A stretch of 64,000 bases of DNA from Fistulifera solaris (Eukaryota): NCBI GenBank assembly GCA_030295235.1, contig AP026123.1, forward strand, positions 1,860,001 through 1,924,000, given 5' to 3'. This document shows positions 13,605 to 28,576 of the stretch, piece after piece. How positions within the stretch are numbered: position 1 is the stretch's first letter; each line of letters begins with the position of its first letter. The position numbers were made by a program, and so were the translations under genes. The notes beneath the pieces were generated by a model. That model saw nothing but the letters and a program-made list of their open reading frames with translations, made no database searches and was not told the origin of the DNA.

Positions 13605-15340
13605 ATGAGAGACATCTTACAATCTGCACTGCTAATATCATTGCTCATCCTTCCAATTGAGGCGACTGTGATAAATAATAACACTATGGACATTTCAATC
13701 GATGGAGAGATGACAGAGAGGGATTTCTCAAATCCATTTGAGCGACTCGAACACTTTCGAGAGTACACGAGGGAAGAAACACCTCGTCGCAAAGACAGAA
13801 TGAAAGAGAGGCGGCTGCGCGCGGAGGAAGCGTTCCGAAGATTGCCACAACCTTCTCTTGACAAACTGGAACGCTTGACGGAAGAAGAAGTTTCCAATCT
13901 ACGAAAAAGAATCGTGATTTGAGCTGGTTTAGTTCCAATGCCGATGCGGATCCGTACGCGACAAGTGTTCTGGCCGATCCTTCGCAAGAGTATGACAAAT
14001 GGGCACAAGCATACCGTATGCTTGGTGGCTTCATCGATTGCGATCACAAAAAGACAGGCAACAATCATCACAGTCAAGATAACAACAAAAACAATGATGA
14101 CAAATCCTGTTCAAGGTGGATGATGTGGGCAGCAGTAAGTACACCCTCACATGAACAATTTGGCTTTCGAATCGTTTATACTAACCGATGTTCGCGCACA
14201 GTACGTCAACCCTAACTATCAAGGAAACGAATACGATGAGTACTATGGTGATAATCCTACAAGTGTATTGGACTGTCATAGCCCCGATACGGAATGGAAG
14301 TTGTTGGGTGTTTACCGGCAGGAGTTCTACCAGTACATCGAACAGATCTCGAAGCATCTTTGGGCGATTGACGAGTACGAATACATTGTAGCGTTGGCAG
14401 GCCTATCGTACATGACAAATGCCGATTGCTTTCAAGTAGGAAAGGACTCGAGTGGAAACGCAATTTACGCCGGTGTGGCGCCTCAGCCCTATGGCAAGTT
14501 CCAAATGGCTCTGTATACCGACGTGTACTGCTTGACGCCAAATAACAATCTGGGCAAGACATACGACGATTACAACTTGCAAACAAACATCGATCTAGGC
14601 TCGAAAGACAAAACGGACGATGACACTTACGCCTGGGCCTACGACGATTGGTACAGCACCCAGGAATATACCCTGACAAACCTCAATAACGTGTACGAAG
14701 AGTACAAGTATTGTACATCGTGTGTGGATTATCCCACGTACCAGGATGGATACTTCATTGGTGACAAGGGAACCGATGACGACGACCTTATCAACCAGTG
14801 TTGGAAGTTTTATTCTCACAATTCGTACACATGTGAAGCTGAATGCATTGCCATGGCACATGCTCAAGGAACTATCCTGTCGTTGAAGTATGGTGATACC
14901 ACGTTCGGGAGGGCGACACAGGGTTTCTACCAGCATGTGAGCGAATCGGTGAAGAGGTCACCAGAAGAGTCGCCGGTGGCTCGATTACTGGCGAACGCAT
15001 TTTTGACGTTCTCCTTCTTGCTGTTTATCGCAACATTCCTTGCCTTTGCGGTAGCGAGGCGATCAAGGTACCGAGAGAGCAGAAGCGCACGATCTCGTCG
15101 TCTACTGGATGATGACGACGGTGCTCGCAGCCGCCGGTCGAGACGCTCCAAGTCTCGAGCCGAAGAGGGTGATGGACTCTTCAAAAGTTCATCGAGTCGA
15201 AAGAGTAGCAGCAGAACGCGAAAGAGCAGTAGCAGAAGTACCTCGAAGAGCAAAAGAGGTTATCGACGCCGAAATCGTCATACGAGCCGCCATCCTACGG
15301 CGGTAGACCCGACCCTTCAGCAGGTGAAAGCTATATTTAG
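13605..15340 (+). CDS. Type I membrane protein: signal peptide, RxL motifs, Cys/Tyr/Asp-rich luminal domain, one TM helix, Ser/Arg-rich basic cytosolic tail
   Basis: Signal MRDILQSALLISLLILPIEA; intron ~14135-14201; TM AFLTFSFLLFIATFLAFAVA. Apparent homopolymer frameshifts at ~13904-13908 and ~15252-15255; the corrected C-terminus is SYEPPSYGG...SYI*. Confidence 0.7.
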
Positions 15341-15622
15341 TTCTAGGGAGGCGCTAACAAAGCTGCTACTCTTCTTCTGTCTGTATTTACTTCCTTACCC
15401 TCTAATAATATCTAAGATTTTCAACCTGTAAATACCTGTGTTGCTCTTGCTTCATGAGCATGACTGTATTCATGTAGTAAAAGTGCAAAATTACAAAATT
15501 GACTCAAAACCATAGCGAAGCATCACCACCAAGGAAACCACCCTAATCGAACTGAGGTCGCAGGGCTTATTTGATTGATACGGAATAACTAAACTACAAA
15601 GGATGACTAGATCATTGCCTTA

Positions 15623-16158
15623 CTATGATGACGATGTTTGTGTAGCCGGGCCTCTTCCACCGGAACGCCCTCGTCCAGCAGAAGTTCTACCACGTCCCGC
15701 TCCGCCTCCTCTACCAGTACTAGGACCAGATCGTCCTCGACCCCGTCCACCACGGCCAGCACTGTTGTCAAAGCGCCCTCGACCGCGTCCGCCACCACGG
15801 CCAGCCGGAGAGCGCTGGGCTAGTTCTTTCTCGTCCTCGACGGCCTTTTCTAGCGCTGCATCCGATAGACGTAAATATTTGATTGCCGATCCTCGAATGT
15901 AGCATGAAGGTAACTTCCAGAATCGTTCACCGGTGGCAGAAGTGCAGATCACATCGGTAAGATTCATATTCATCCACGCATCACATGTCCCCAATCTTCC
16001 ATTGTAGGTCGTTCCGTCCTTTAATTCCACTAAAAGAGGGGATCCTGTAGCGGCACGAAGAAGTGACAGCGGAAGCTAAAGGATGGAAAGGGCATAAATA
16101 GTGAGTCAATAAAAGATGTGAATCTTTTGCGCTCCATTTTGGCTTTGTCGCGTACCAT
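15623..16158 (-). CDS. LSM4: U6 snRNA-associated Sm-like protein LSm4
   Basis: M|LPLSLLRAA.GSPLLVELKDGTTYNG.L..CD.WMN, CYIRGSAIKYLR and an RGG-rich tail. The first coding exon is only the ATG (16156-16158); intron 16076-16155. Confidence 0.93.
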
Positions 16159-16829
16159 AATTAGCCGATTACAAACAAAGATCCACTAATCGATCTTTCA
16201 CTACGACGCGAAACTGCTCCTTTCTCTTCTCGAGTAAGCGTTGTGAGAATACAACTTCGGGTGAGTACGTAACGTAATCAAGTAAGTAACGTGCGATTGT
16301 AGGGAAATGTCATGGTCGAAGAGAGAGATTTGCTGCGCTTGTTTCGTCCGTGTCCTCTCGGTCTTCGGCCACAATCCAGTCGGATAAATTCGTGTTTCGC
16401 CAACCCGATAGTGAACAGTACTCACCGAATACTTAGGGGGTATGTCATCTATCTAACCAAGTCCATCGATGTCTGAATTTTTAAGTAAGTAGTGCCGAAT
16501 GATCATTTACTTAAGAGAGTCATCAGAGAGTCCCACAAATACATAGACAATGTCGTTTTGCTTTATCAGTCCGAAAAATGAAAAATGTACTTCATACAAT
16601 CGCCACTCGCTGACTGGGGGCGCCCTTGCGTTCAAAGAAAATCTCCATCATGGGCATCTTTCGCCGGGCCTTCCACGCTTTACACGCTTTGCGCATTCTT
16701 CCATAGAGTGTTTTTGATAGTTATTCTGAACGTTGACGTAGTCTCAAGTCATTCCTTGCGAGAACAGGCATGTCCGAGTGCTTGTCAATTTTTCAGTGTC
16801 AGTCTTGTTGTTTTTTTGAAGAGACCATC

Positions 16830-17932
16830 ATGCATCCAAGGGCTTCTGCTTCTCGGCGATCGCTGGACAACACTTCGGACGTGGCCTTGCGTTCCAGGTC
16901 CGTGGAACGTTTCTCGGGCCAAGAGAGTGCGGACGGAACAAGTAACATGCACCCGACCGTCGAGAAAATGCCCATTCAGAGGTCTATGAGCGATCCTTTT
17001 GATACACAAGAAGATGCGGCAACGGTGGGAATCAGCGAGGAATCGGATGAAAGCAGTCTTGCTGCTTCTCGTTCTCGGACCATGTCAAAAGATATGAATC
17101 TTGCCACGATGCCGCGCTATCCGCACCACGAATCGAAGGACCGGAACACTTTCAGTGAACCTCCTATTTCCATATTCACGGTCCGTGGTCCTCATTACTT
17201 TCAAGATAAGAAGAAAGTATCAAGCGGGCCCTATTTACTACCTGCCAGAGGTTGCGATTTGCTACTGGTGGACGAAAACCAACATGTCGATCTCCGAGAG
17301 CGGTGAGTTCAATATATTTGTTACTTTGGATTGATTGCTCCCTTTCATTTACTAACACAATTTATCTTTACATCAACAGAACTCGCAATATCATGGGAGG
17401 GCAGCTCCGGAAGCGTCCTACATTGGCGATCAATTTTAAATTTCCTTGGGGTTACATGAATCTTTATTTCGAAGTACCGGATCGTTTGGCACCTTACATG
17501 AGTCCCTCTGTCACGCTGGCGAGCGGTTCGTCTTTTAATCCAGCGGAAAAATCACTGATAGCGTGGTTCCAAGGCGACCAGGAATATCGAAACGAACGAC
17601 TGAAATTGATTCCTTTTGTAGCCGAGGGACCTTGGGTGGTGCGGAATATGGTGACGGGGCGTCCTGCCATTATTGGTAAAAAGTTGCCTGTCACATATGA
17701 CTTGATGGTGGGCACCGAGACAGAAGCCCCGCTTCTCATGGCAACACTGGATATTGGGAGCAGCAGCGCGACAGCGAAACGAATTGTCTCCGTGTGTCGT
17801 CGCTACATGAGTTCGCTGACGGTTGATATTGGTTTTGTGATTCAAGCCGAAGAAGTATCGCAGCTACCGGAACAAATGATGGGATCCATCCGCGTGCATC
17901 ATGCGGATCCACTCAAGGCGCCTAAACTATAA
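16830..17932 (+). CDS. EDR2 C-terminal (DUF1336)-domain protein
   Basis: F.VRGP.YF.DKKKV, RNERLKLIP.V.EGPWVV, PAIIGKK, DIGSS and DIGFVIQ....LPE motifs; intron ~17303-17379. Confidence 0.88.
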
Positions 17933-18223
17933 ATACAAGTAATTATAATGAACATACTTTGACTATGTAATTGTTCATGATTGAACATTACTTCCTGTTA
18001 TATAGCTAGCTATACTCTACGAAGTCGACCAATACTATTCAGCGAATGAATCTGGAGTGACACTGTCGAATCAAAAGCATGATCTTCGGGGCAAGCAATG
18101 GCAACGACGATTGGCAACGTTGCTTGTCTACTAGGTCGAGAACGCGATTGAACACCAAACAAAAAGCTAGGGAGCGCATTTAGGACCTTGATGGCAATTA
18201 AAAAGATCGAAAAAGAGAGTTAA

Positions 18224-18275
18224 TGCACCGTCCGAGAATCGAACTCGGAGCTCGACGATGGCAACGTCGAATTTT
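18224..18275 (-). pseudogene. 3' part (52 nt) of the interrupted host tRNA-Gly(GCC) gene
   Basis: Minus strand AAAATTCGACGTTGCCATCGTCGAGCTCCGAGTTCGATTCTCGGACGGTGCA contains the anticodon arm (GCC), T arm and 3' acceptor strand, followed by a T-run terminator. The 5' part is missing here. Confidence 0.92.
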
Positions 18276-18307
18276 TTGTCTGAAAAAATTCAAAAAAAGA
18301 AACGCAG

Positions 18308-18378
18308 TGCAGCATCCGAGAATCGAACTCGGGGCACGACGATGGCAACGTCGTATGTTACCATTACACCAATGCTGC
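18308..18378 (-). tRNA. tRNA-Gly (GCC), intact, inside the element
   Basis: GCAGCAT TG GTGT AATGGTA ACAT A CGACG TTGCCAT CGTCG TGCC CCGAG TTCGATT CTCGG ATGCTGC A forms a complete 71-nt cloverleaf, with downstream T runs (Pol III terminator). Confidence 0.96.
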
Positions 18379-18470
18379 GTTTTTCAAAGAGTGTTCGAAA
18401 CAACTGAAGTACAATAAGTAAAAGGTACGGTAGTGGTAGGTCTCTAAGGTTATGAAGGCTTACAAATCGA

Positions 18471-21400
18471 TCAATCATTAATCGCCAAGTCATCTAGCGC
18501 TTCAGTGCGCTTTCGCTTCCGAGATCCACCTTCAACCGATTTGTCACCCGACAGCGAGTAATCTTTAAAATCCGCATTATCCAGTCCCTCAGGAATGGCT
18601 GCATCGTCCAAATCTAGCATGGCTGCATCGTCCAGATCATTGCTTTCCTCTTCGCGTTTCTGAAGTAATTCGAATAATTGCTGATCTGTCGCGATTTTTC
18701 CTTTATGGAGTCGATATTTTTCAAGTGCAGCGTCCACTTTCTCAGGCTTGACACTTTTCCGGAGGTACTCTTCTTGAAAGTGCGTCAAATCAGGGAATCT
18801 TGCACACTCCTCAGCTGTGTAAACGCCTTCAATACGCGCAACCTTCATCTTGTCACAGATCCTGTTCAACCTTTTACGCTGATTTTTCAACACTGCAGCT
18901 TGTTCTTTCTTTTCCTGCTCAGTTTGGGGATCTAACATTGCCTGCTTTCGCTTTGAAGAGTCGTAATGGCGCTTGATAGGCTTGTGCGGCACACCATTTT
19001 CATCTCGTCCTCGATGCTTGAGACTGTGCTTCTTTCGGTATTCGGCGTTCTCTTGCATCTTTTTCTCGCGAAACCATTCAGCTGCAATGCGTGCATTGGT
19101 GCAATTGCCATACTCAGTGTAGGTGAAGTACTTCTTTTTATGAGAAGCGCGTAACTTCTTTTCAAACACTTCATAGTCAGAATATATTGCATACCAGAGC
19201 TCTCCTTCTCGGTGAAAGACACCGGTCATTGTTCCGTCTTCACGATACCGTCGCGTAGTACGCTTGTTATTTGCACTTTCCAGGGGAGAAACAACAGCAA
19301 GATTGTCGAACGAGTTGTTTTCTCTGTTTCGATCGACGTGATCCACAATTTCAAGGTCTGTCAGCAATTCACCAGTAAAGCACTCCACTGCTAATCGATA
19401 GAAGCAATATCTTTTCCCGCCGATTGACACAGTGACGTGGACAATGGGGAGATTGGGTCCCTTGGGCTTGTAAGTTATGATCGTAATGTCATAGAAAAGT
19501 TTAGCGCGTGTATCATAAATAAGGGTACCGTCTGCGTTGATTTTGATCGGTAGGCTTGGATCCGGATAGTCATACCAGACTTCTTTCGGGTCGCAATCGG
19601 CAAACGTCTTATACTCGCTCTTCAGTATCTTGGTAGACTCTCGGCGTGCCAGTTCATTCCTGGAGTGCAAATGACATTGACGACAAAGTGAGCTTCTCGT
19701 GAATCATCTGAAACGACACATCAATATCCACTCACCCTCGTACACGATTCGATAATTGCAAGTTTTCACTCTGTGGAATCCAACGTAAGTATTCTGAATC
19801 ATTGTTGCACTGCTTTGACTTGTGGTGGATGACGTGTTTGGGAGTTGGTCGTGGTCCAATGAAAGTGGCTGCAATCAATCCAGCCAGGGAACACTCGTAT
19901 CCTGTGCTACTGCAGTCTTCGTCACAAAGATGGACATGACGATAGCCGAAAGCATCAGGGGTCGACTTAAGTAGTTTGTAACTTCGCACCAAATATCTCT
20001 TTTTCTTCCGTGCCGTCCTGTAGGTTCTCCGACCAATGATCTCACCTATCCCTTCTGCTAAATATCTCTTTGCAGTTTTCGGTTTCAGCCAATGACGGTG
20101 GCAGGCTATGGCAAATCCTAACGGACTGGCATAGTAAACGACCGGGAGTTGACCTGCTCCGTTACCCGACAGAAGCACCTGCGTGCTATTTTCTATATCA
20201 CCATAAATTTTTGGGGTTTGCTCGTCCGGAAAAGGAACAAATTCTGGAAACTGGGCAACTTTTACGCATTGCTCAGGCGTCAGCGCTGTTTTATCGGTAG
20301 CAAGAGCAGCTTGTATGTGGCGTGGTACCATCTTCAACTCTTTTTTCTCAAGTAAGGAATTCGCAATCTTTGCAGGAATAAAGTAGCCTTCCTCGTCCAT
20401 TTCAAAACCCGTGCTTTCTATATTCGACTCTACGGTCATGAGCAAGAAATCCAGCAATTCGTCGTCTGATGCATACTGTAAAGGCACGTTCTCAAACTTG
20501 ACGCCGCGTGGTTGATGCGTTCCAGTTCCGTCACTTTTGAAAGTTTCTGGATATGGGACCGACGGATACGATGGGACCGTGGGATCGTCGCTCGGAGAGA
20601 CAATGTTCCTTTCTGGGATCGGAACTTCGCTAGCATCGGCGTTGTCAGCTCTGTTTGAAATAAGGCGATAATGAATGAGTGCACGAGTGCAGCTATCTCT
20701 TACAAACATCTCCCAAACTTACCTTTCAAGGACAACATCACTATCCATTGCAGGTGCGCCGTTTTCTAAGACTACGTCCTTCGGTTCGTTGATATCCTCA
20801 AGTTCTGTCTCATCGGACGAAGTGGTCTTTTGGTCATCACTATGGGTGTCGTGTTCAACTTCACTTTGATCTGTAACAATATTGCTGTCTTGTGGCTTTG
20901 TACCTCCACGAAGACGCAGCAGCAGGTACAAAGTTGATTCCTTCTCAATGTTGTAGTCGCTTAAAGTTTTGGCGTCCTCGAGTTGCTTGCCGTTGTACAG
21001 CAAACGCTGTTGATCAGGTGGAATACATTCCCTGTCCTGGATTTTGGTTTTGACCTTGTAAACAAGATCCAAGGAATTTGCGTCGATGGTAATAGTACGC
21101 CCGGCCACAGTCTTCACGAAGATCTGCATGGTCGCTATTTGAGAAGCCGACTCCTGCTCCGTATTGGGGTCGCTAACAAAATTCTCGTTTTCGATGACAG
21201 ACGAAATACCTGGAGTGCCAATGACGTCCTTTGGTATGAGATTCCTGTACGGATAGAATCGTGCATTTCGGAGACGAAGTGGGAAGGACCTATGCACTAG
21301 ATTGCGGTAGGATTTAGTCCGAAGTTGGAGCTTCTGCTGATGTTTCTCCTCCTTTTTCTCCCGACGAGCGTCCGCTCTCCGCTGACGTCGCGACATAACT

Positions 21401-22560
21401 GGGGCTGCTGGAGTAGCAACAACCAGAGGAGTTGGCAAATCCGCTCTTCCAGGTTGGTCGGGGAAGTAGTTTAGCTGCAAATGGATCGACGTTAAACTCA
21501 CAGCGCCAACGGACTTTGACAGCCACAAGACGAATCCGACGAAGGCATAAAACAAAGTCGTTCTCGCCAAACCGAGCAAGAAAGTACTCGACCACGAGGG
21601 TCCTTTCGAACCAAGCGACGCTTGATGAATGATCTCGTCATTGTCACTATGTTTCGATTTAGAATGACTCTTCACGCGACTTTTCTCGCCTTTGCAGAAC
21701 CGCCGAGGGGGAGTAATGACGTTCTCAGCCGGGACAGCGCCAAAAACATTTATTTCTTCTATCGTATCAACTGAAACCTCATCGCTTTGTTGTGTCGTGT
21801 GATAATTAAGAGTCGTAGCGCGTCGTCCGGTATTGCTCCTAACACGACGCCAAGTGTTGCGTCTAAAACGTTGACAACGTCGCTGAGACCCAGCCTTTTT
21901 CTTGCGTTTGAACCGACTCTTTTTCCTTCGTCTACGCCGAGCGCGACTGATTTCAACCCGCTGAGCAAGATTCTGATCGTGATCGTTTCCATCCGATCCC
22001 GAGCTCGAGTCTGCAATCGAATCTACCACGACGAAGTCTTTCTGTCCGGCGCAATTGGTTTTCCGACTATTCGCGCCCACACCTTTCTTTGTCTCACCTA
22101 CCGGTGCGGGACCGTCGCCAATCTTGCTTTCCGCGGTGGACTCGTTCAAGCCAGTATCCGTCTTTGCAGCAGGGCTAACGTTAGACGAAGGAAGCCATTC
22201 ATCGCGAAGCACCGTGAGAAAAGCAACGCCATTCACTTTTGCCCCCAAGAGCTCCTCTGGTCCGTCGTCCTCATCGTCCGCGTCGAGACAAGCGAAGCGA
22301 TTCTCGTTGACACCGACAGAGAGATTCGCGGTCGTCCCCAAAAGATCCTCTGGTCCGTCGTCCTCGTCGTCCTCTTCGAGACAAGCAAAGCGATTCTTAG
22401 TGACAATGACAAATGAGCGATTCGCATTTTGAACTTCGAAGTCTGTTTGTCCATTGACACCACCGGCTGCCGAGCAACCATTGCCTTGCACGGTAATGAA
22501 GCCTTCCAAGTCAATATCAGGCGGGCCCGAACGCGACTCGCGTCTTCTCTTCGATCCCAT
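18471..22560 (-). CDS. ~1313-aa multidomain protein: low-complexity/basic N-terminus, ubiquitin, HNH, HNH plus AP2-like domain; exons 22560-20723, 20650-19736, 19659-18471
   Basis: Three ORFs are joined in frame by GT-AG introns 20651-20722 (GTAAGT..AACAG) and 19660-19735 (GTGAGT..TCCAG). Ubiquitin MQIFVKT...LRLRGG at 21129-20902. HNH-like [11 protein letters not shown]...VIHH....NN....LRW....EN and YRLAVECF.G....[19 protein letters not shown]2-like TGVF......WYA.....KKKYF...YG...ARIAA..FR. Confidence 0.85.
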
Positions 22561-23799
22561 ATTTACCGCGATTCGGGAAATATTATTGTTGAATCAAGTG
22601 GAGAGCAAAGAAAATTTAAAAGTCGTGTCTGCTGTGCTTTTTTGTTTCGCCACAAATGACGGCAAAGAAAGACAAATGAAGGCAAGAACAGGCAAGCCGG
22701 CCGTGAAAACGCAAGATACGCATGGCCAAAAGCTGGGCGGGAAATTATTCTTCTCTGGAATAGAAAGTACCCTCTATGATTGGAAATGTACACCAAGATA
22801 CTTTTCTCCGGGACCAACAACCGAAGTGTAACTCGTAACCTTACTTTGGGCAATATCAATGAAAATATCGTCGAAGCACGCTGATGCATATTATTTTCAC
22901 AATCGAGAGCGACGAGCAATAGATGACAAACACACGAATCAGTATTCGGTCGAGCAGCTGTCAAAACGTTTTTCAAAAGCAACCGTCGCTTCCTTTGCCC
23001 AGCGTCAGTCCTGCTCAAAAGCCGAGATTATGACGAGATTCCGTTCCGCGTCGTAGAAACTCACCATCGTTGTTTTACCCGCTCGTTTCTCCAAATGCAA
23101 TGCCTTAATCATCGGCTGCTCCACTAACGTAGCTAATTACAAAGATGTTGGGCATGTTCGCGATGTTGATCGAAAAGTTGTTACTTGATTCATAAACGCT
23201 AGAAAGCTCGATGGCTAGGCCGAGCAAATTAGGTCTCAAGCGCGTAATTGACTTCCCAAAATAAAGCTTGCGCGGTGTGATGCAATGACTCGACTTTTCT
23301 AAGTCGTCATTAGTAACTCGGACAGTATTTTCCATGTCACGGTAATGCGGAGAATCACTGTGAATGCCAGCGCTCACCATAACTTCTAGACCCACTAAAG
23401 TCTGGAAAGAGCCTCGTGGCTTCTCTTTCGAAAAGTAGCGCGAGTACATCAGCTGATGGGTCCGGTAGCCGTCGAATTTGATCAACAGATGGTTAAAGGT
23501 TCTCTGTATCTATCCACAAGTCACGTAGATCAAATGACTCTTGAAGAGTCGCATTTTCCACTGTTTGCGGTGCGTTGGGTTTATTCGAAGATGAAAGTAG
23601 TGTCGAGCAGAAAACATTGTAGCGGTATTCCAAACCGTGTTCCGTTGACGCCAATTGAAATTTAAGCATTTCGCCGTCGATGTGCTCCACCCTTTGAAAT
23701 TCGTATAACAAATTGAAAAGTCTCTACGGGCCTTTTAACACCGACAGATGCATTCGATAGTTTCATTGTTGCACAAGCAGAAGTCCGGAAAGGTGCAAA

Positions 23800-23841
23800 G
23801 CGAGGGCTCTGGAATCGAACGCGAGGGCTCTGGAATCGAAC
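23800..23841. repeat. Perfect 21-bp tandem duplication containing a B-box-like GTTCGATTCC on the minus strand
   Basis: gcgagggctctggaatcgaac occurs twice in tandem. Confidence 0.85.
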
Positions 23842-24111
23842 GCGTCAGCTCAATTGCAATAATTTTCATTTTTAGCCGCGAGTTGTAGTTCACAAAAACA
23901 CAAACTGCATGAGGAAAGGATGAACGCAATTTTGTGGCATAAAGAATGTGGGCAATAAACGTGGTGGAGCTCTTTTCGACTTTCGACAAACAGCTCATTC
24001 TGTCGGTTTCCATCAAAACAATTTTAGTTTCGATGACGGCGAAAGAGACGGAAACAAAGACCCGTACAAACAAACTTCGTGTCGCAAAGGGTTTAAGTAC
24101 AGTAACACGAA

Positions 24112-24128
24112 CATTAAACCAACGGTGC
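24112..24128 (-). pseudogene. 5' part (17 nt) of the interrupted host tRNA-Gly(GCC) gene
   Basis: Minus strand GCACCGTTGGTTTAATG. GCACCGT pairs perfectly with ACGGTGC of the 3' part at 18225-18231, and GTTT pairs with its AAAT D-stem strand. Confidence 0.85.
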
Positions 24129-24542
24129 AGATGCATCGAAGACGAGGAATTGGAGTTCTTGACTTAATTCTGATTCCGATGGTGGTGTTGGGGTGTTTGA
24201 ATTCAACGGCAGCCCGGAGAAATGGATGGTTGAAAATGAGTAACCCTTAACCTTATAGTGGTTAGGAACAGAGAAGTTGTGTACACTTAGAGATATGCTT
24301 CGAATCGCGGACGGACATAAGTAAAGATAGCCGTCTAACGGACAGACCGGGATCGCATTCGCATGAAAACTGGACACTGGACTCTCTTTGCGCGGCGTGA
24401 TGGTTGACGGTTGACACCTCTTTTCTTGGACGCGTCACCTCGGACCGATGTCAATCGACCGATCTCCAGAAGCGAAAGAATAATTGCAACCGTTCACAAA
24501 CCCTCCAAAAACACGCTGTAGCAACCATTTCAACACAAGTTC

Positions 24543-26495
24543 ATGTCTCGCGTTATATATAACATGAGGATTGTTCATTCGACTACAAGTAGCCCCGCTC
24601 CGGTTGCGGATAACACCAAGGATTTGGCCACTCCGAAAGTCCCCCGTGGGCTTCGCGGTTTGTCGGTGGCCTCGGGCGTTGCTCGGTCATCGGGTGATAT
24701 GTCGGACCTTCAGCAAGATGTTGCCGCGATTGAGCAGTGGTGGCAGGATCCTCGATGGAAGCACACGAAGCGTACTTACTCGGGTGAGTAGTTTGTTATC
24801 GAAAGGTTTTATAGAAGATCATTCCCGTGTCTCACCTCTAACCCGTTCTTGTTTCTGCCGTTTCAGCCATGGATGTTGCGTGCCTTCGGCCCTCTCACCA
24901 AGCTCGTGGTGGTTCCTTGGAGGCCCCGGGTACCTCCTTTTCATCGCAACAGTCCATGAAGCTTTGGGATCTGTTGACAAAGTTGCATGAGGTTGGAGGT
25001 TACTCTCATACCTTCGGAGCGCTCGACCCTGTTCAGGTAACGCAGATGGCCCCTCACTTGTCGTCAATTTATGTCTCCGGCTGGCAATGCAGTTCCACGG
25101 CTAGTACAACAAATGAACCTGGGCCCGACTTTGCGGATTATCCCAGCAACACTGTACCCAACAAAGTCGATCAGCTCGTCAAGGCTCAACTTCATCACGA
25201 CCGTCGTCAGCAACAAGAGCGCTCTCAGGCTCTTCTTGCCGGACAGGATCCGGGTACGAAACTGGACTACCTAAAACCCATTGTTGCCGATGGAGATACC
25301 GGTCATGGTGGTCTAAGCGCCGTCATGAAACTGACAAAACTCATGATCGAGGCGGGGGCAGCCGGTATGCACTTGGAGGACCAAAAACCGGGAACCAAAA
25401 AGTGTGGACACATGGGTGGAAAAGTGCTTGTTTCGACTCAAGAGCATATTGATCGCTTGGTGGCGGCCCGCTTGGCGGCGGACATTATGGGTGCCAATTT
25501 GATCCTCGTGGCCCGCACCGACGCCGAGGCGGCAACTTTGTTGGATAGCAACATTGACGGTCGTGACCATCCTTTCATTTTGGGTGTGACGGATCCTTCT
25601 CTGCCTTCTTTGCAAGAAGTGCTGGCGAGTGCGCCGCCGGAACAAGCCGCTCAAGTGAGTGCGGAATGGAAGGCCAAGGCAAATTTGATGACTTTCTCGG
25701 AGGCGGTGTTGTCCGAAATTGAGCGTTCGGCAGCACCCGCTTATCGCAAGCGGCAAATGAAAGATCAGTGGATGTCCGCTGATCCTGATATATTGAGTAA
25801 TGCCGCGGCACGACGTATCGCAGATCAAATCTTGGGGCGCAAGAATGCAGTAAGTACCTTTCGGTTGTGCTTTGTTGGCGAGGTCAATTTGCATCTCATA
25901 CATTTGTACTCAATATTCTCACTTCATGTTGCAGGTCTACTTCGACTGGGAAAAGTGCCGCGTGCGTGAGGGTTACTACCAGTTAAAGGCTGGAATCGAT
26001 TATTGCGTTCAGCGCGCTAGAGCCTACTCGCCTTACGCCGATCTCATCTGGATGGAGACGGCAATTCCTGCCGTGAGCGATGCCGCAAAATTCAGTCACG
26101 GTGTCCGATCGGCTTGCCCGCACCAAATGTTGGCTTACAACTTGAGTCCTTCTTTCAACTGGGATGCATCAGGTATGAGTGACGCAGAAATCAGTCGTTT
26201 CAATGACGATTTAGGCCGTCTTGGATACGTTTGGCAGTTTATCACTCTCGCCGGTTTCCACAGTAACGGTTTGATTATCACTGAACTTGCTAGAGCATAC
26301 GCCGACCGTGGAATGATCGCATACTGTGAACTTATTCAACGACAGGAGCGAAAGAAGCAGATTGAACTTTTGAAGCATCAAAAGTGGTCTGGGGCTGAAT
26401 TGATTGATCAGCAAGTGATTGTGGCATCTGGAGGTGTCTCTTCTACTGCTGCAATGGGATCAGGAGTCACCGAATCGCAGTTTGGAACGCACTAG
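24543..26495 (+). CDS. ICL: Isocitrate lyase, 3 exons (introns 24784-24866 and 25850-25934)
   Basis: Catalytic KKCGH motif, [36 protein letters not shown] and QFITLAG. Confidence 0.97.
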
Positions 26496-26787
26496 TTGAA
26501 TACAACATTGCTCGATAAGATACTACCTGGTAACATACGTTAGGAATCTACATTTTTCGATAGCAATGGCTCCTTTTCAAAAGAGAATTGCTTGATTAAG
26601 CAAAGATTAATCACTCCCTATTCCATTCAACAAATCTACGAAGCACTACATTTTTATGAATTCGTGTTTCTATGATGTGAATCAGTTTGAACAATCACTA
26701 CTCGAGTGATGTTGGGCAGCGGTATAGAATCAATCCCGCGCTATTTCTAAATTCTAACAACAGTATCATGCGTTGTTCCTGAACTGG

Positions 26788-28576
26788 CTAGTCGGTAATG
26801 CGACATTTCTTGGACGGAGAAGCGAGATCGGGTGAGCTCGGTGCTTCAGCAGAATCTTTGCTGCTATTCTCGCAGTTCTCCTTTGACCCAATATCAGTAG
26901 CGTTATCTTCTTTCGAATCGTTGCTGTTTGATTTGGGGGTTGAATCACAATTCGGGTGAACGAAAGTCGGAAGTTCGCTACTCGTGATGTGCTTCAAGCT
27001 AAGGTCCATCCCAGCGACGCGATTGCTCCATGAGTTGACGCTATGAAGAAATGCAGAGGGTGCAAAACGCATATCGATTGTATCGACTCCGTCTGCAAAA
27101 CGAAGCGCAATGAAAAAGAGAGATTCGTGGATTGCATTTTCGTCTTTCGTCTTTCCCTGCCCCAAACAATTGCCGTCGCTATCGTAGCTGCGATCAAAGA
27201 AGCGGGCAAACGGCCAAGCGTGAACTTGCTCGGTCTCCAGATCTGTGATCAGCACACGAAGACGTGATTCCACGAGACGGAACCACTCAACGAAATCCTG
27301 TCTGCTCGTGGCGCGAATTGTTACTTGAAGAAAATGTTCGTGTCGACTAAAGAAATCAGACGGTTTGAACAAGGCCGCAAAATCATTCTTGTGCTTTCGC
27401 AAGTGGTTGCATGCAAGAATCATCTCGTTCTGAATGCTGCGTAGCTGCGGAAAACCCACATTGTACGACGAATTCATGCTAGGATAAGCAGGAGTAATGA
27501 TAGGCATTATATGGAGCCCATCACGAGGGTTCACATCAGGGTTCCATGCAGGCAGTTCGACAACGCCGTCTGGTGGGGTCTCTTGAATCGGCTGGAGCAG
27601 TACAGGGTTCGCCCATTTCCAAGACGCGAATACTCGAAAGAAAATCTCCAAAAGATTCGATGTGCTAGCACGAGGATGGTTTTTGCATACCCAGGCAACA
27701 AGAATTGCCCAATTTATACCACCAAGAAAGCCTGTGAAAAATTAATAGCAACACAACGTTAGACGAGGAACATCTTTCGAAGAATGAGAACAATCGCAAC
27801 GTACCTAGCACGTTCGAATAAATCCCAGATTGATGCGCCCATTCTTTGACTGCTTTAAGCACCGTCATATAAGCTTTGTAGTCAGGGACCATCTCTTGAA
27901 GCATCTGACAAACACGAGCTCCATTCATCGATCGAACTCCCGCTTCGTCGAGACCCACAAGATCACGGTCATCGATAATGTACTCGACTCGCGGCGTTGA
28001 AGAGACTAATTGAGTCGTCACCAGGGGACTCACACGTTGTCGTTGAAAGGCTAAAAGCTTCGAAGGATTATCAACTCTCGCAAATAGCATATCAATCTGA
28101 TATCCTTTCAACAGAAACTTGATCACCGGTGTATAAGCAGTTGGGATTGGATGAACTTGGTCAATAAGGGGATCGCTTTTCAGCATGTCCACAAGGGACG
28201 TGAAAAAGTCTTTACGTGTGCAAGAAGGAGGAGCAATCGCGAGAACATCAAGATCAGACGACTTTCGATGTACCCCGAGGCGAAAGGAACCGATACTGAC
28301 AAGTGTCACGCGAGGTGTCTGCCATGGATTTTCGGGAAACGAATGAGCATTGCTGTTGATTGTACGCGCGGCCATCGCCCATCGCGCGAGGATCTTTTCC
28401 AGATAGTCCAATGCTAATCGTCTACTATGGTAATCACTACCCTTGTATGTCTCGATTTCCGCAACAGCCTCTTCTAGCACCCCGGGTCTATCACTCGCTC
28501 CGGCCTTTTGTCTTCGGCGTGTCTGTTTGTTTTGCTTGTTTGCCGCAAAGGGCGTACTCGATGAGAGGGATGTCAT
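26788..28576 (-). CDS. PAP: Canonical poly(A) polymerase (start codon uncertain), intron ~27733-27805
   Basis: GSFRLGVH...SDLD, AYTPVIKF, RSMNGARV, GIYSNVLG|FLGGINWA, HIMPIITPAYPSMNSSYNV and VESRLR motifs. Confidence 0.92.

Follow-up and report, generated by a model that had tools for sequence, protein, structure and literature searches.

How does an intact tRNA-Gly(GCC) gene come to lie between the two halves of a broken tRNA-Gly(GCC) gene, beside a nuclease gene carried by only one of two versions of the locus? A first interpretation made from the letters of the DNA (the sequence-only reading) took the intact gene for replacement cargo, carried about 30 bp from the end of an inserted element in a cut-and-rescue design. 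Our window, that is, the whole 64-kb stretch of DNA analysed, contains a single tRNA detectable by ARAGORN, with anticodon gcc, at 18307 to 18378 on the minus strand. This gene, hereafter T2, scored 61 bits against the Rfam tRNA family RF00005 (gathering threshold, 29; E 9.6e-11; 18308 to 18378), which together with its GCC anticodon makes it a member of the tRNA-Gly(GCC) class. A 31-nt spacer (18276 to 18306, minus strand) follows as the T2 3′ trailer, with a T7 run resembling a Pol III terminator about 10 nt past the 3′ end of T2, and abuts the 3′ fragment of the broken gene. The 88 nt upstream of T2 (18379 to 18466, minus strand) are common to an insert-free version of the locus, represented by record 4 of public data set X1.

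The broken gene, T1, is also a tRNA-Gly(GCC). Its 3′ fragment of 52 nt (18224 to 18275, minus strand; repeat D2, 83%) extends from the 3′ strand of the D stem to the 3′ end of the gene. The 5′ fragment of 17 nt (24112 to 24128, minus strand), which was the sole exact match to a 13-nt pattern in the window, consists of the 5′ strand of the acceptor stem, the 5′ strand of the D stem, and the start of the D loop. The two fragments are 5.8 kb apart, and T2 lies inside the interval that parts them, as cargo of an insert would. The window has two copies of the anticodon-arm 17-mer (18253 to 18269 and 18337 to 18353, 84 nt apart), against 0 expected from shuffles. ARAGORN, Rfam, and comparison with the T1 fragments confirmed the basic observation of the sequence-only reading, namely, an intact tRNA-Gly(GCC) between the halves of a disrupted gene.

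T2 and T1 differ at 9 of 69 comparable positions (3 of 17 in the 5′ fragment and 6 of 52 in the 3′ fragment). Six of these nine differences make up three fully compensated stem pairs (4-69, 6-67, and 12-23), so that pairing is kept in the acceptor stem (GCAGCAT/ATGCTGC in T2 versus GCACCGT/ACGGTGC in T1) and in the D stem (GTGT/ACAT versus GTTT/AAAT). The variable loops read TGCC and AGCT, respectively, and the anticodon and T arms of the two genes are the same. All these features had been described correctly from the outset. Judged by its sequence, T2 is thus a structurally sound and distinct tRNA-Gly(GCC) isodecoder. The further claim that the differences flank the insertion site holds in part: positions 12, 23, and 26 are within about 9 nt of the T1 break, and D-loop position 19 of T2 probably differs as well, the T1 letter being taken from a loose contig end in X1.

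The T1 halves are exactly complementary in extent, covering nucleotides 1 to 17 and then the 3′ D-stem strand onward; they do not overlap, and two D-loop nucleotides are missing. They also pair perfectly, with 7 + 4 pairs between the fragments and 5 + 5 pairs inside the 3′ fragment. At roughly 7% change per lineage, an old split would be expected to have left about five changes in the 69 nt of T1. No decay was found at any of the 42 pairing positions (22 inter-fragment and 20 internal), and the break therefore looks recent. A search for a T1 3′ remnant beside the left end of the insert returned nothing above shuffles (score, 15; shuffle mean, 13.8; shuffle maximum, 22).

The interval between the T1 halves holds, besides T2 and its flanks, an insert (X; 18467 to 24111, minus strand) found in one of the two locus versions in data sets X1 and X2. 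It was delimited by the joint of 18466 to 24153 in X1 record 4 (side, 114) and by single-version contig depth. Exon joining and BLASTP revealed in it one gene of 1,313 codons (18471 to 22560, minus strand) with three exons, 22560 to 20723, 20650 to 19736, and 19659 to 18471, the last including the stop codon. These derive from three long open reading frames (ORFs) upon removal of two GT-AG introns, and the joined exons amount to 3,942 nt devoid of internal stops. Predicted intron 1 (20651 to 20722, minus strand; 72 nt, GTAAGT...CAG) was deduced from its letters at a junction that no relative spans; the apparent TAA stop after the first ORF falls within its GTAAGT donor. The second junction is spanned by an alignment of residues 635 to 1147 of the spliced protein to residues 30 to 553 of P0006 (45.8% identity; E 7.8e-150), a 1,013-residue single-ORF relative annotated by its source as hypothetical and assigned there to the diatom Fistulifera solaris. 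With predicted intron 2 (19660 to 19735, minus strand; 76 nt, GTGAGT...CAG), the spliced junction is colinear with P0006 and equal in length. Two other introns starting at 19735 were discarded; one of 28 nt yields a stop, and one of 40 nt leaves 12 extra residues relative to P0006, versus 0 with the 76-nt intron.

The remaining 1.55 kb of the insert (22561 to 24111, minus strand) has no recognisable gene, with Pfam matches at an E value of ≤0.01 in 0 of 8 stop-to-stop ORFs, and is presumed to be promoter/leader or decayed DNA. No recombinase, integrase, or reverse transcriptase was found among the insert ORFs scanned. Likewise, the search for terminal repeats, long terminal repeats (LTRs), or an att-like duplicated tRNA end revealed none, the sole long direct repeat being that between the T1 fragment and T2 (83%). 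The hexamer TACAAA, present at 18461 to 18466 and at about 24065 to 24070, was dismissed as a target-site duplication because it is too short, and no convincing duplication of this kind surrounds the insert. The pairing of recombinase and att repeats that marks integrase-type tRNA-targeting islands was therefore not found here. Two kinds of internal repeats were observed in the coding sequence. Two 88-nt direct repeats, 82% alike and 93 nt apart, lie in the N-terminal coding part (22231 to 22411, minus strand) and encode a repeated acidic motif, and a 24-nt tandem unit of variable copy number occurs in the C-terminal coding part (18595 to 18638). X2 record 11 (96% alike) has a joint of 18644 to 18613 with 10 extra letters at this tandem unit, and P0047, an 89-residue ORF on another contig with 82% identity to the C terminus of the nuclease, has extra copies of it. 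The locus is flanked on the plus strand by a gene with an EDR2_C domain (17393 to 17932; 126 bits) and by an isocitrate lyase gene (24543 to 25969; 402 bits), the latter with a short intron and an apparent N-terminal exon (24543 to 24791). Within this isocitrate lyase gene, 71 nt (24789 to 24859) are absent from an X2 contig.

The protein encoded by the insert is of the homing-endonuclease type, as judged from its domains and its predicted fold. Its N-terminal 477 residues are without known relatives, and the Protein Atlas gave no usable match for them. They are followed, in frame and upstream of the nuclease part, by a ubiquitin domain ending in LRLRGG (20902 to 21129, minus strand; PF00240, 81.7 bits, E 3.1e-23, residues 480 to 551 of P0003). 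Deubiquitinase cleavage after the GG would free the HNH-HNH-AP2 part from the N-terminal 553 residues. Two HNH motifs come next. The first (19759 to 19878, minus strand) is HNH_3-like, with a PF13392 score of 17.2 bits, under the cutoff of 24.8, and a match to phrog_959 (E 2.1e-9). The second (19278 to 19397, minus strand) belongs to HNH_3 (PF13392, 31.2 bits versus the same cutoff; phrog_59, E 3.6e-12) and has a fold match to I-HmuI. Its histidine H122 is invariant in 41 aligned sequences, with D121, N130, N134, and N146 nearly so. Downstream of it, a putative AP2-like DNA-binding domain (19029 to 19241, minus strand) was assigned by fold matches and by relatives with PF00847; Pfam AP2 had no match in the protein itself at an E value of ≤1. 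Among the 41 aligned relatives, HNH_3 is present in 34, AP2 (PF00847) in 20, and NUMOD4 in 2; NUMOD4 was not found in the nuclease protein.

A model of the C-terminal 410 residues reached a mean pLDDT of 81. The predicted fold matched I-HmuI (1u3e) with a Z score of 9.2 and a root mean square deviation of 2.9 over 101 aligned residues, and model residues 151 to 247 matched AP2 domains with Z scores of 8.0, 7.7, 7.3, 5.2, and 4.9. These Z scores come from a second structural comparison, Foldseek having returned no match for the C-terminal model at an E value of ≤0.001; by sequence, the only PDB hit was a chance coiled-coil match (E 0.032). The C-terminal part of the protein is long and helical. 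HMMER collected 419 proteins at an E value of ≤0.001, 4 of them at ≤1e-30, while alignment-based scans for HNH-AP2 yielded 68 metagenome and 26 viral pattern matches, none of which was confirmed. The relatives P0004/P0154, P0005, P0007, and P0008/P0155 make up a small family (42 to 70% identity) encoded on short contigs from metagenomes and from other assemblies; P0154 is without the AP2 segment and has its C-terminal helical module duplicated. HNH_3-AP2 homing endonucleases, often with the order NUMOD4-HNH_3-AP2, are described from phages and have also been reported in eukaryotic viral elements (PMC12220804). The protein resembles I-HmuI and HNH_3-AP2 enzymes in its HNH_3 domain with the conserved His, its modelled match to the I-HmuI fold, and the AP2-type domain predicted after the nuclease. 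Unlike the I-HmuI types, it is about four times longer, has a duplicated HNH, a ubiquitin fusion, and a long helical C terminus, and lacks NUMOD4; its gene, moreover, lies outside introns and virus-like elements.

Public contigs revealed a second version of the locus. Contigs of four runs were aligned to 14000 to 28000: X1 (single organism, perhaps the source data set of the window assembly), X2 (wetland metagenome), X3 (sediment metagenome), and X4 (freshwater metagenome). In X1 and in X2, the flanks occur in two versions of similar depth that differ by a few to about 15%; the two are either alleles that have diverged or, in a hybrid genome, homoeologues. Between 20071 and 23806, a single contig version was found, at a depth of 19.0 versus 20 to 48 in the flank bins of X1 and of 10.3 versus 11 to 31 in those of X2. 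In both data sets, the nuclease gene is thus present in one of two homologous regions and absent from the other. The critical contig is X1 record 4 (826 nt; depth, 15.9), which matches 18353 to 18466 with 13 other letters, continues with 58 unmatched letters, and then matches 24153 to 24316 with 23 other letters and 1 gap. This joint indicates a second version without 18467 to 24152 that retains the 5′ part of T2 and its 88-nt upstream flank. A further joint, 18508 to 24405 in X2, was set aside, having only 22 letters on one side. Pieces of the insert were also observed in X3 records 16 to 18 (20373 to 23487, at or near 100% identity) and in X4, where record 26 matches without differences and record 27 has 16 other letters and 8 gaps; the insert-bearing version is thus present in environmental samples of other studies.

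The T2 flank is 11 to 15% diverged between the two versions and the right flank 14%. The flank of T2 is thus as diverged as ordinary flank, which indicates that T2 already occupied the locus when the versions separated. Homology between them stops 5 nt past the stop codon of the nuclease gene (18471 to 18473), which puts the indel boundary there and not 30 bp beyond T2; an indel end hugging the stop codon is what would be expected of a compact inserted gene. T2 itself is probably identical in both versions, as deduced from contig boundaries: X1 records 4 and 5 both start at 18353, and adjacent contigs share 30 letters (19641 to 19670 in records 5 and 6), which suggests that 18353 to 18382 are exactly alike. 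These results divide the original placement of T2 inside the element, about 30 bp from its end. T2 does lie between the T1 halves, but the break in homology falls next to the nuclease stop codon. They also weaken its interpretation as replacement cargo in a cut-and-rescue design, for X1 record 4 keeps T2 without the nuclease gene and a T1-type D arm is intact elsewhere. Occurrence of the isodecoder at the empty orthologous site, which the sequence-only reading had itself named as evidence against the idea, is largely what was found, with the 5′ part of T2 at a nuclease-free locus. Where the insert is absent, T2 is not. That the insert brought T2 as a replacement finds no support in the one comparison available, and we consider it unlikely.

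The same data could be accommodated if the whole 5.84-kb block, insert and T2 cassette together, had entered a single T1 before the versions diverged and one version had later lost the nuclease gene by internal deletion. One insertion and one deletion would then explain both the complementary halves and the occurrence of T2 with a diverged flank in each version. However, such an old insertion should have left some five changes in T1, and none is seen at the pairing positions; in addition, the deletion would have had to end by chance 5 to 60 nt from the stop codon in a block of 5.8 kb. We regard this history as very improbable.

The junctions bear on another, almost equally improbable account, in which nothing was targeted and an ordinary host gene came to lie between tRNA pieces because a tRNA cluster rich in repeats underwent an unrelated rearrangement or was wrongly assembled. 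The left junction, formed by the T1 fragment, the spacer, and T2, is in no contig among the rows listed; another X1 contig runs rightward from 18294, preceded by 21 letters that correspond to a diverged T2 trailer (18273 to 18293). The right junction is real, because X1 record 6 spans it with 0 differences (19641 to 24615). An ordinary host gene would suit the short, host-like GT-AG introns, the lack of transposition machinery, and the several diverged members of the HNH-AP2 family in related genomes, and the second version is rearranged too. In X1 record 3, which represents that version, a diverged T1 3′ piece is followed 47 letters later by a repeat of the flank and the T1 3′ end, and 73 letters are replaced over 18033 to 18111. 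Against this account, the encoded protein is of a homing-endonuclease type, and exact T1 pieces of 17 and 52 nt meeting at one D-loop position would be very unlikely without a site-specific break.

The region replaced in record 3 overlaps further tRNA-Gly sequence. Gapped local alignment placed the decayed remains of a T2-like tRNA-Gly gene, interrupted by insertions, at 18053 to 18158 (minus strand), 65 nt beyond the T1 fragment on its downstream side. The support for this pseudogene is modest: the score against T2 was 53, just modestly above the best of 1,944 other 130-nt window chunks (48), and 0 of 1,000 shuffles reached it. The pseudogene and the tandem repeat of record 3 fit an old local tandem cluster of tRNA-Gly genes, as far as their sequences can tell. 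Other contexts of both isodecoders were found in the contigs. In one X1 contig, the loose end behind 18275 extends T1-type sequence across an intact D arm, T1 3′ ends occur with another downstream flank in X1 and X2 (loose end before 18224), and an X3 contig running rightward from 18289 is preceded by 183 unrelated letters, giving a third downstream context of the T2-like stretch. Because T1-type sequence with an intact D arm persists, rescue is not obviously needed; the removal of other functional target copies that defines cleave-and-rescue is not observed.

These contexts also bear on a broader version of the cargo idea, in which T2 would be conserved cargo of a family of elements inserting in T1 D loops, the window holding an autonomous member and the other version a non-autonomous one (the T2 cassette with short ends) in the orthologous T1. 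A single insertion would directly give complementary T1 halves with two nucleotides lost, and the 17-nt T1 piece could be accommodated in the 58 unmatched letters of the insert-free version, together with flank (about 24 nt) and the end of an element (about 17 nt). An apparently unchanged T2 amid diverged flanks is as expected for a selected core, and the partial clustering of T2-T1 differences around the break agrees with it. In spurious ORFs over tRNA-Gly genes of other organisms, three of three D arms were T1-like and none T2-like, a sample far too small to call T2 rare. Other observations argue against such a family. Neither a second copy of the insert nor a further T2 flanked by T1 halves was found in X1 among the matches listed. 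The pseudogene is too near the T1 fragment to leave room for a T1 5′ piece and the 88-nt flank, which implies that T2-like genes are also plain cluster members. In X3, homology to the T2 trailer ends at 18289 and not at the supposed element end, 18276. Persistence of intact T1-type sequence would leave little benefit from rescue, and recombinase and terminal repeats are missing from what was scanned. We consider this family of elements an unlikely, though not a negligible, alternative. In additional scans, the shared tRNA core (39 nt, 2 N) had 0 matches in metagenomes, a result of little weight given a pattern whose last base may be missing in the tRNAs of other species; in viral scans, both the tRNA core and the T2 5′ half had 0 matches. 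Searching for second-version DNA by way of spurious tRNA ORFs recovered none of the locus (the 3 foreign ORFs above in one frame and nothing in the other).

We thus favour, at about half of our belief, invasion of an old tRNA-Gly cluster by a free-standing gene of the homing-endonuclease type, T2 being a resident of that cluster and its T1-type members having suffered D-loop breaks. On this view, tRNA-Gly(GCC) genes of both isodecoder types, T1 and T2, would have been clustered at the locus for a long time, with T2 as a selected member that may predate the divergence of the two versions. One version would later have gained the 5.6-kb insert, a single-gene element ending 5 nt after its stop codon and about 90 nt upstream of T2, which we propose entered at a D-loop break of a T1 located upstream of T2. 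This upstream T1 would have kept nucleotides 1 to 17, now joined to the insert. A second T1, downstream, may have been broken at the same site, and a small deletion reaching up to the T2 terminator may have removed its 5′ part and the spacer. T2, a D-arm variant, would survive between the broken T1 genes and may be refractory to the enzyme. That T2 is the resident and the nuclease gene the later arrival is favoured by the indel boundary next to the stop codon, the old divergence of the T2 flank, the recent look of the T1 break, and the nearby pseudogene.

Several elements of this reading are conjectural. We infer that the nuclease made the T1 breaks, by analogy with T4 SegB, and that two T1 genes were originally present. 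Resistance of T2 to cutting is likewise presumed; T2 may go unrecognised because it differs from T1 at positions 12, 23, and 26, and at 19 if the loose end is representative. Immunity of T2 to the nuclease, as proposed in the sequence-only reading, would be plausible whether T2 is resident or cargo. Cluster invasion also has its costs. It needs two same-site breaks plus deletions, and one insertion into a single T1 is simpler. The insert-free version does not provide a clean empty target, since an entire upstream T1 would take 71 nt and a spacer, and only 58 letters separate the right flank from the T2 upstream flank. Finally, the T1 fragments could be old and yet look undamaged if gene conversion with other T1 copies repaired them.

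Integrase-type islands and prophages insert into tRNA genes and restore the 3′ end of the gene. The present locus is similar in that the insertion is at a tRNA gene and tRNA function would be retained close by; it differs from such islands in having neither integrase or recombinase nor an att-like tRNA duplication, and in containing a eukaryotic nuclear gene with introns. Pol III-directed retrotransposons (Ty3 and the Dictyostelium TRE/DGLT-A) land just upstream of tRNA genes. The indel boundary about 90 nt upstream of an intact tRNA gene is reminiscent of them, but no reverse transcriptase, integrase, LTRs, or target-site duplication was found. To our knowledge, phages but not eukaryotic nuclei have yielded free-standing homing endonucleases that target tRNA genes and take adjacent tRNA genes with them. 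Our literature search returned no description of HNH-AP2 genes in diatom tRNA genes, nor of broken tRNA genes next to a nuclear double-HNH gene with introns and a ubiquitin fusion.

Among the closest known parallels is SegB of phage T4, a free-standing homing endonuclease encoded in a tRNA cluster. It recognises a tRNA motif, and neighbouring tRNA genes spread along with it (PMC2330249). As with SegB, the nuclease gene lies among tRNA genes in some genomes and is absent from the homologous regions of others. By the same analogy, we propose that the target here would also be tRNA-gene sequence and that neighbouring tRNA genes would be inherited along. The differences are considerable: SegB is a GIY-YIG enzyme of a phage that recognises a T-loop motif, whereas here we have a nuclear gene with two predicted introns, a ubiquitin fusion, two HNH_3 motifs and an AP2-like domain, and D-loop breaks. 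In synthetic Cleave-and-Rescue (ClvR) systems (PMC6442612), the target must be essential and all its other copies destroyed. The locus may resemble ClvR in concept only, as a target-destroying nuclease linked to an uncuttable gene version. Unlike in ClvR, intact T1-type sequence remains, and the putative rescue copy, T2, also exists without the nuclease. The full proposition, that a ubiquitin-fused double-HNH/AP2 protein encoded by a spliced nuclear gene of a diatom-like alga breaks T1 in the D loop and is inherited with an uncuttable T2, whether resident or cargo, is tentative, and we would not expect all of it to hold.

If T2 is a mere cluster member and the insert a passive gene, the locus is an ordinary rearranged tRNA cluster. 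Even so, a hemizygous gene of the homing-endonuclease type in a tRNA-Gly cluster whose T1 genes are broken in the D loop is worth follow-up. If the nuclease breaks T1 but spares T2, a selfish nuclease gene would be acting in an alga on a family of Pol III genes present in many copies, and a natural enzyme with a defined tRNA-gene target would become available. Eukaryotes would then have their own natural parallel to the homing of SegB-type enzymes in tRNA clusters, perhaps even to a cleave-and-rescue drive, and isodecoder diversity of the kind observed here, with compensated stem changes, could be driven by nuclease escape.
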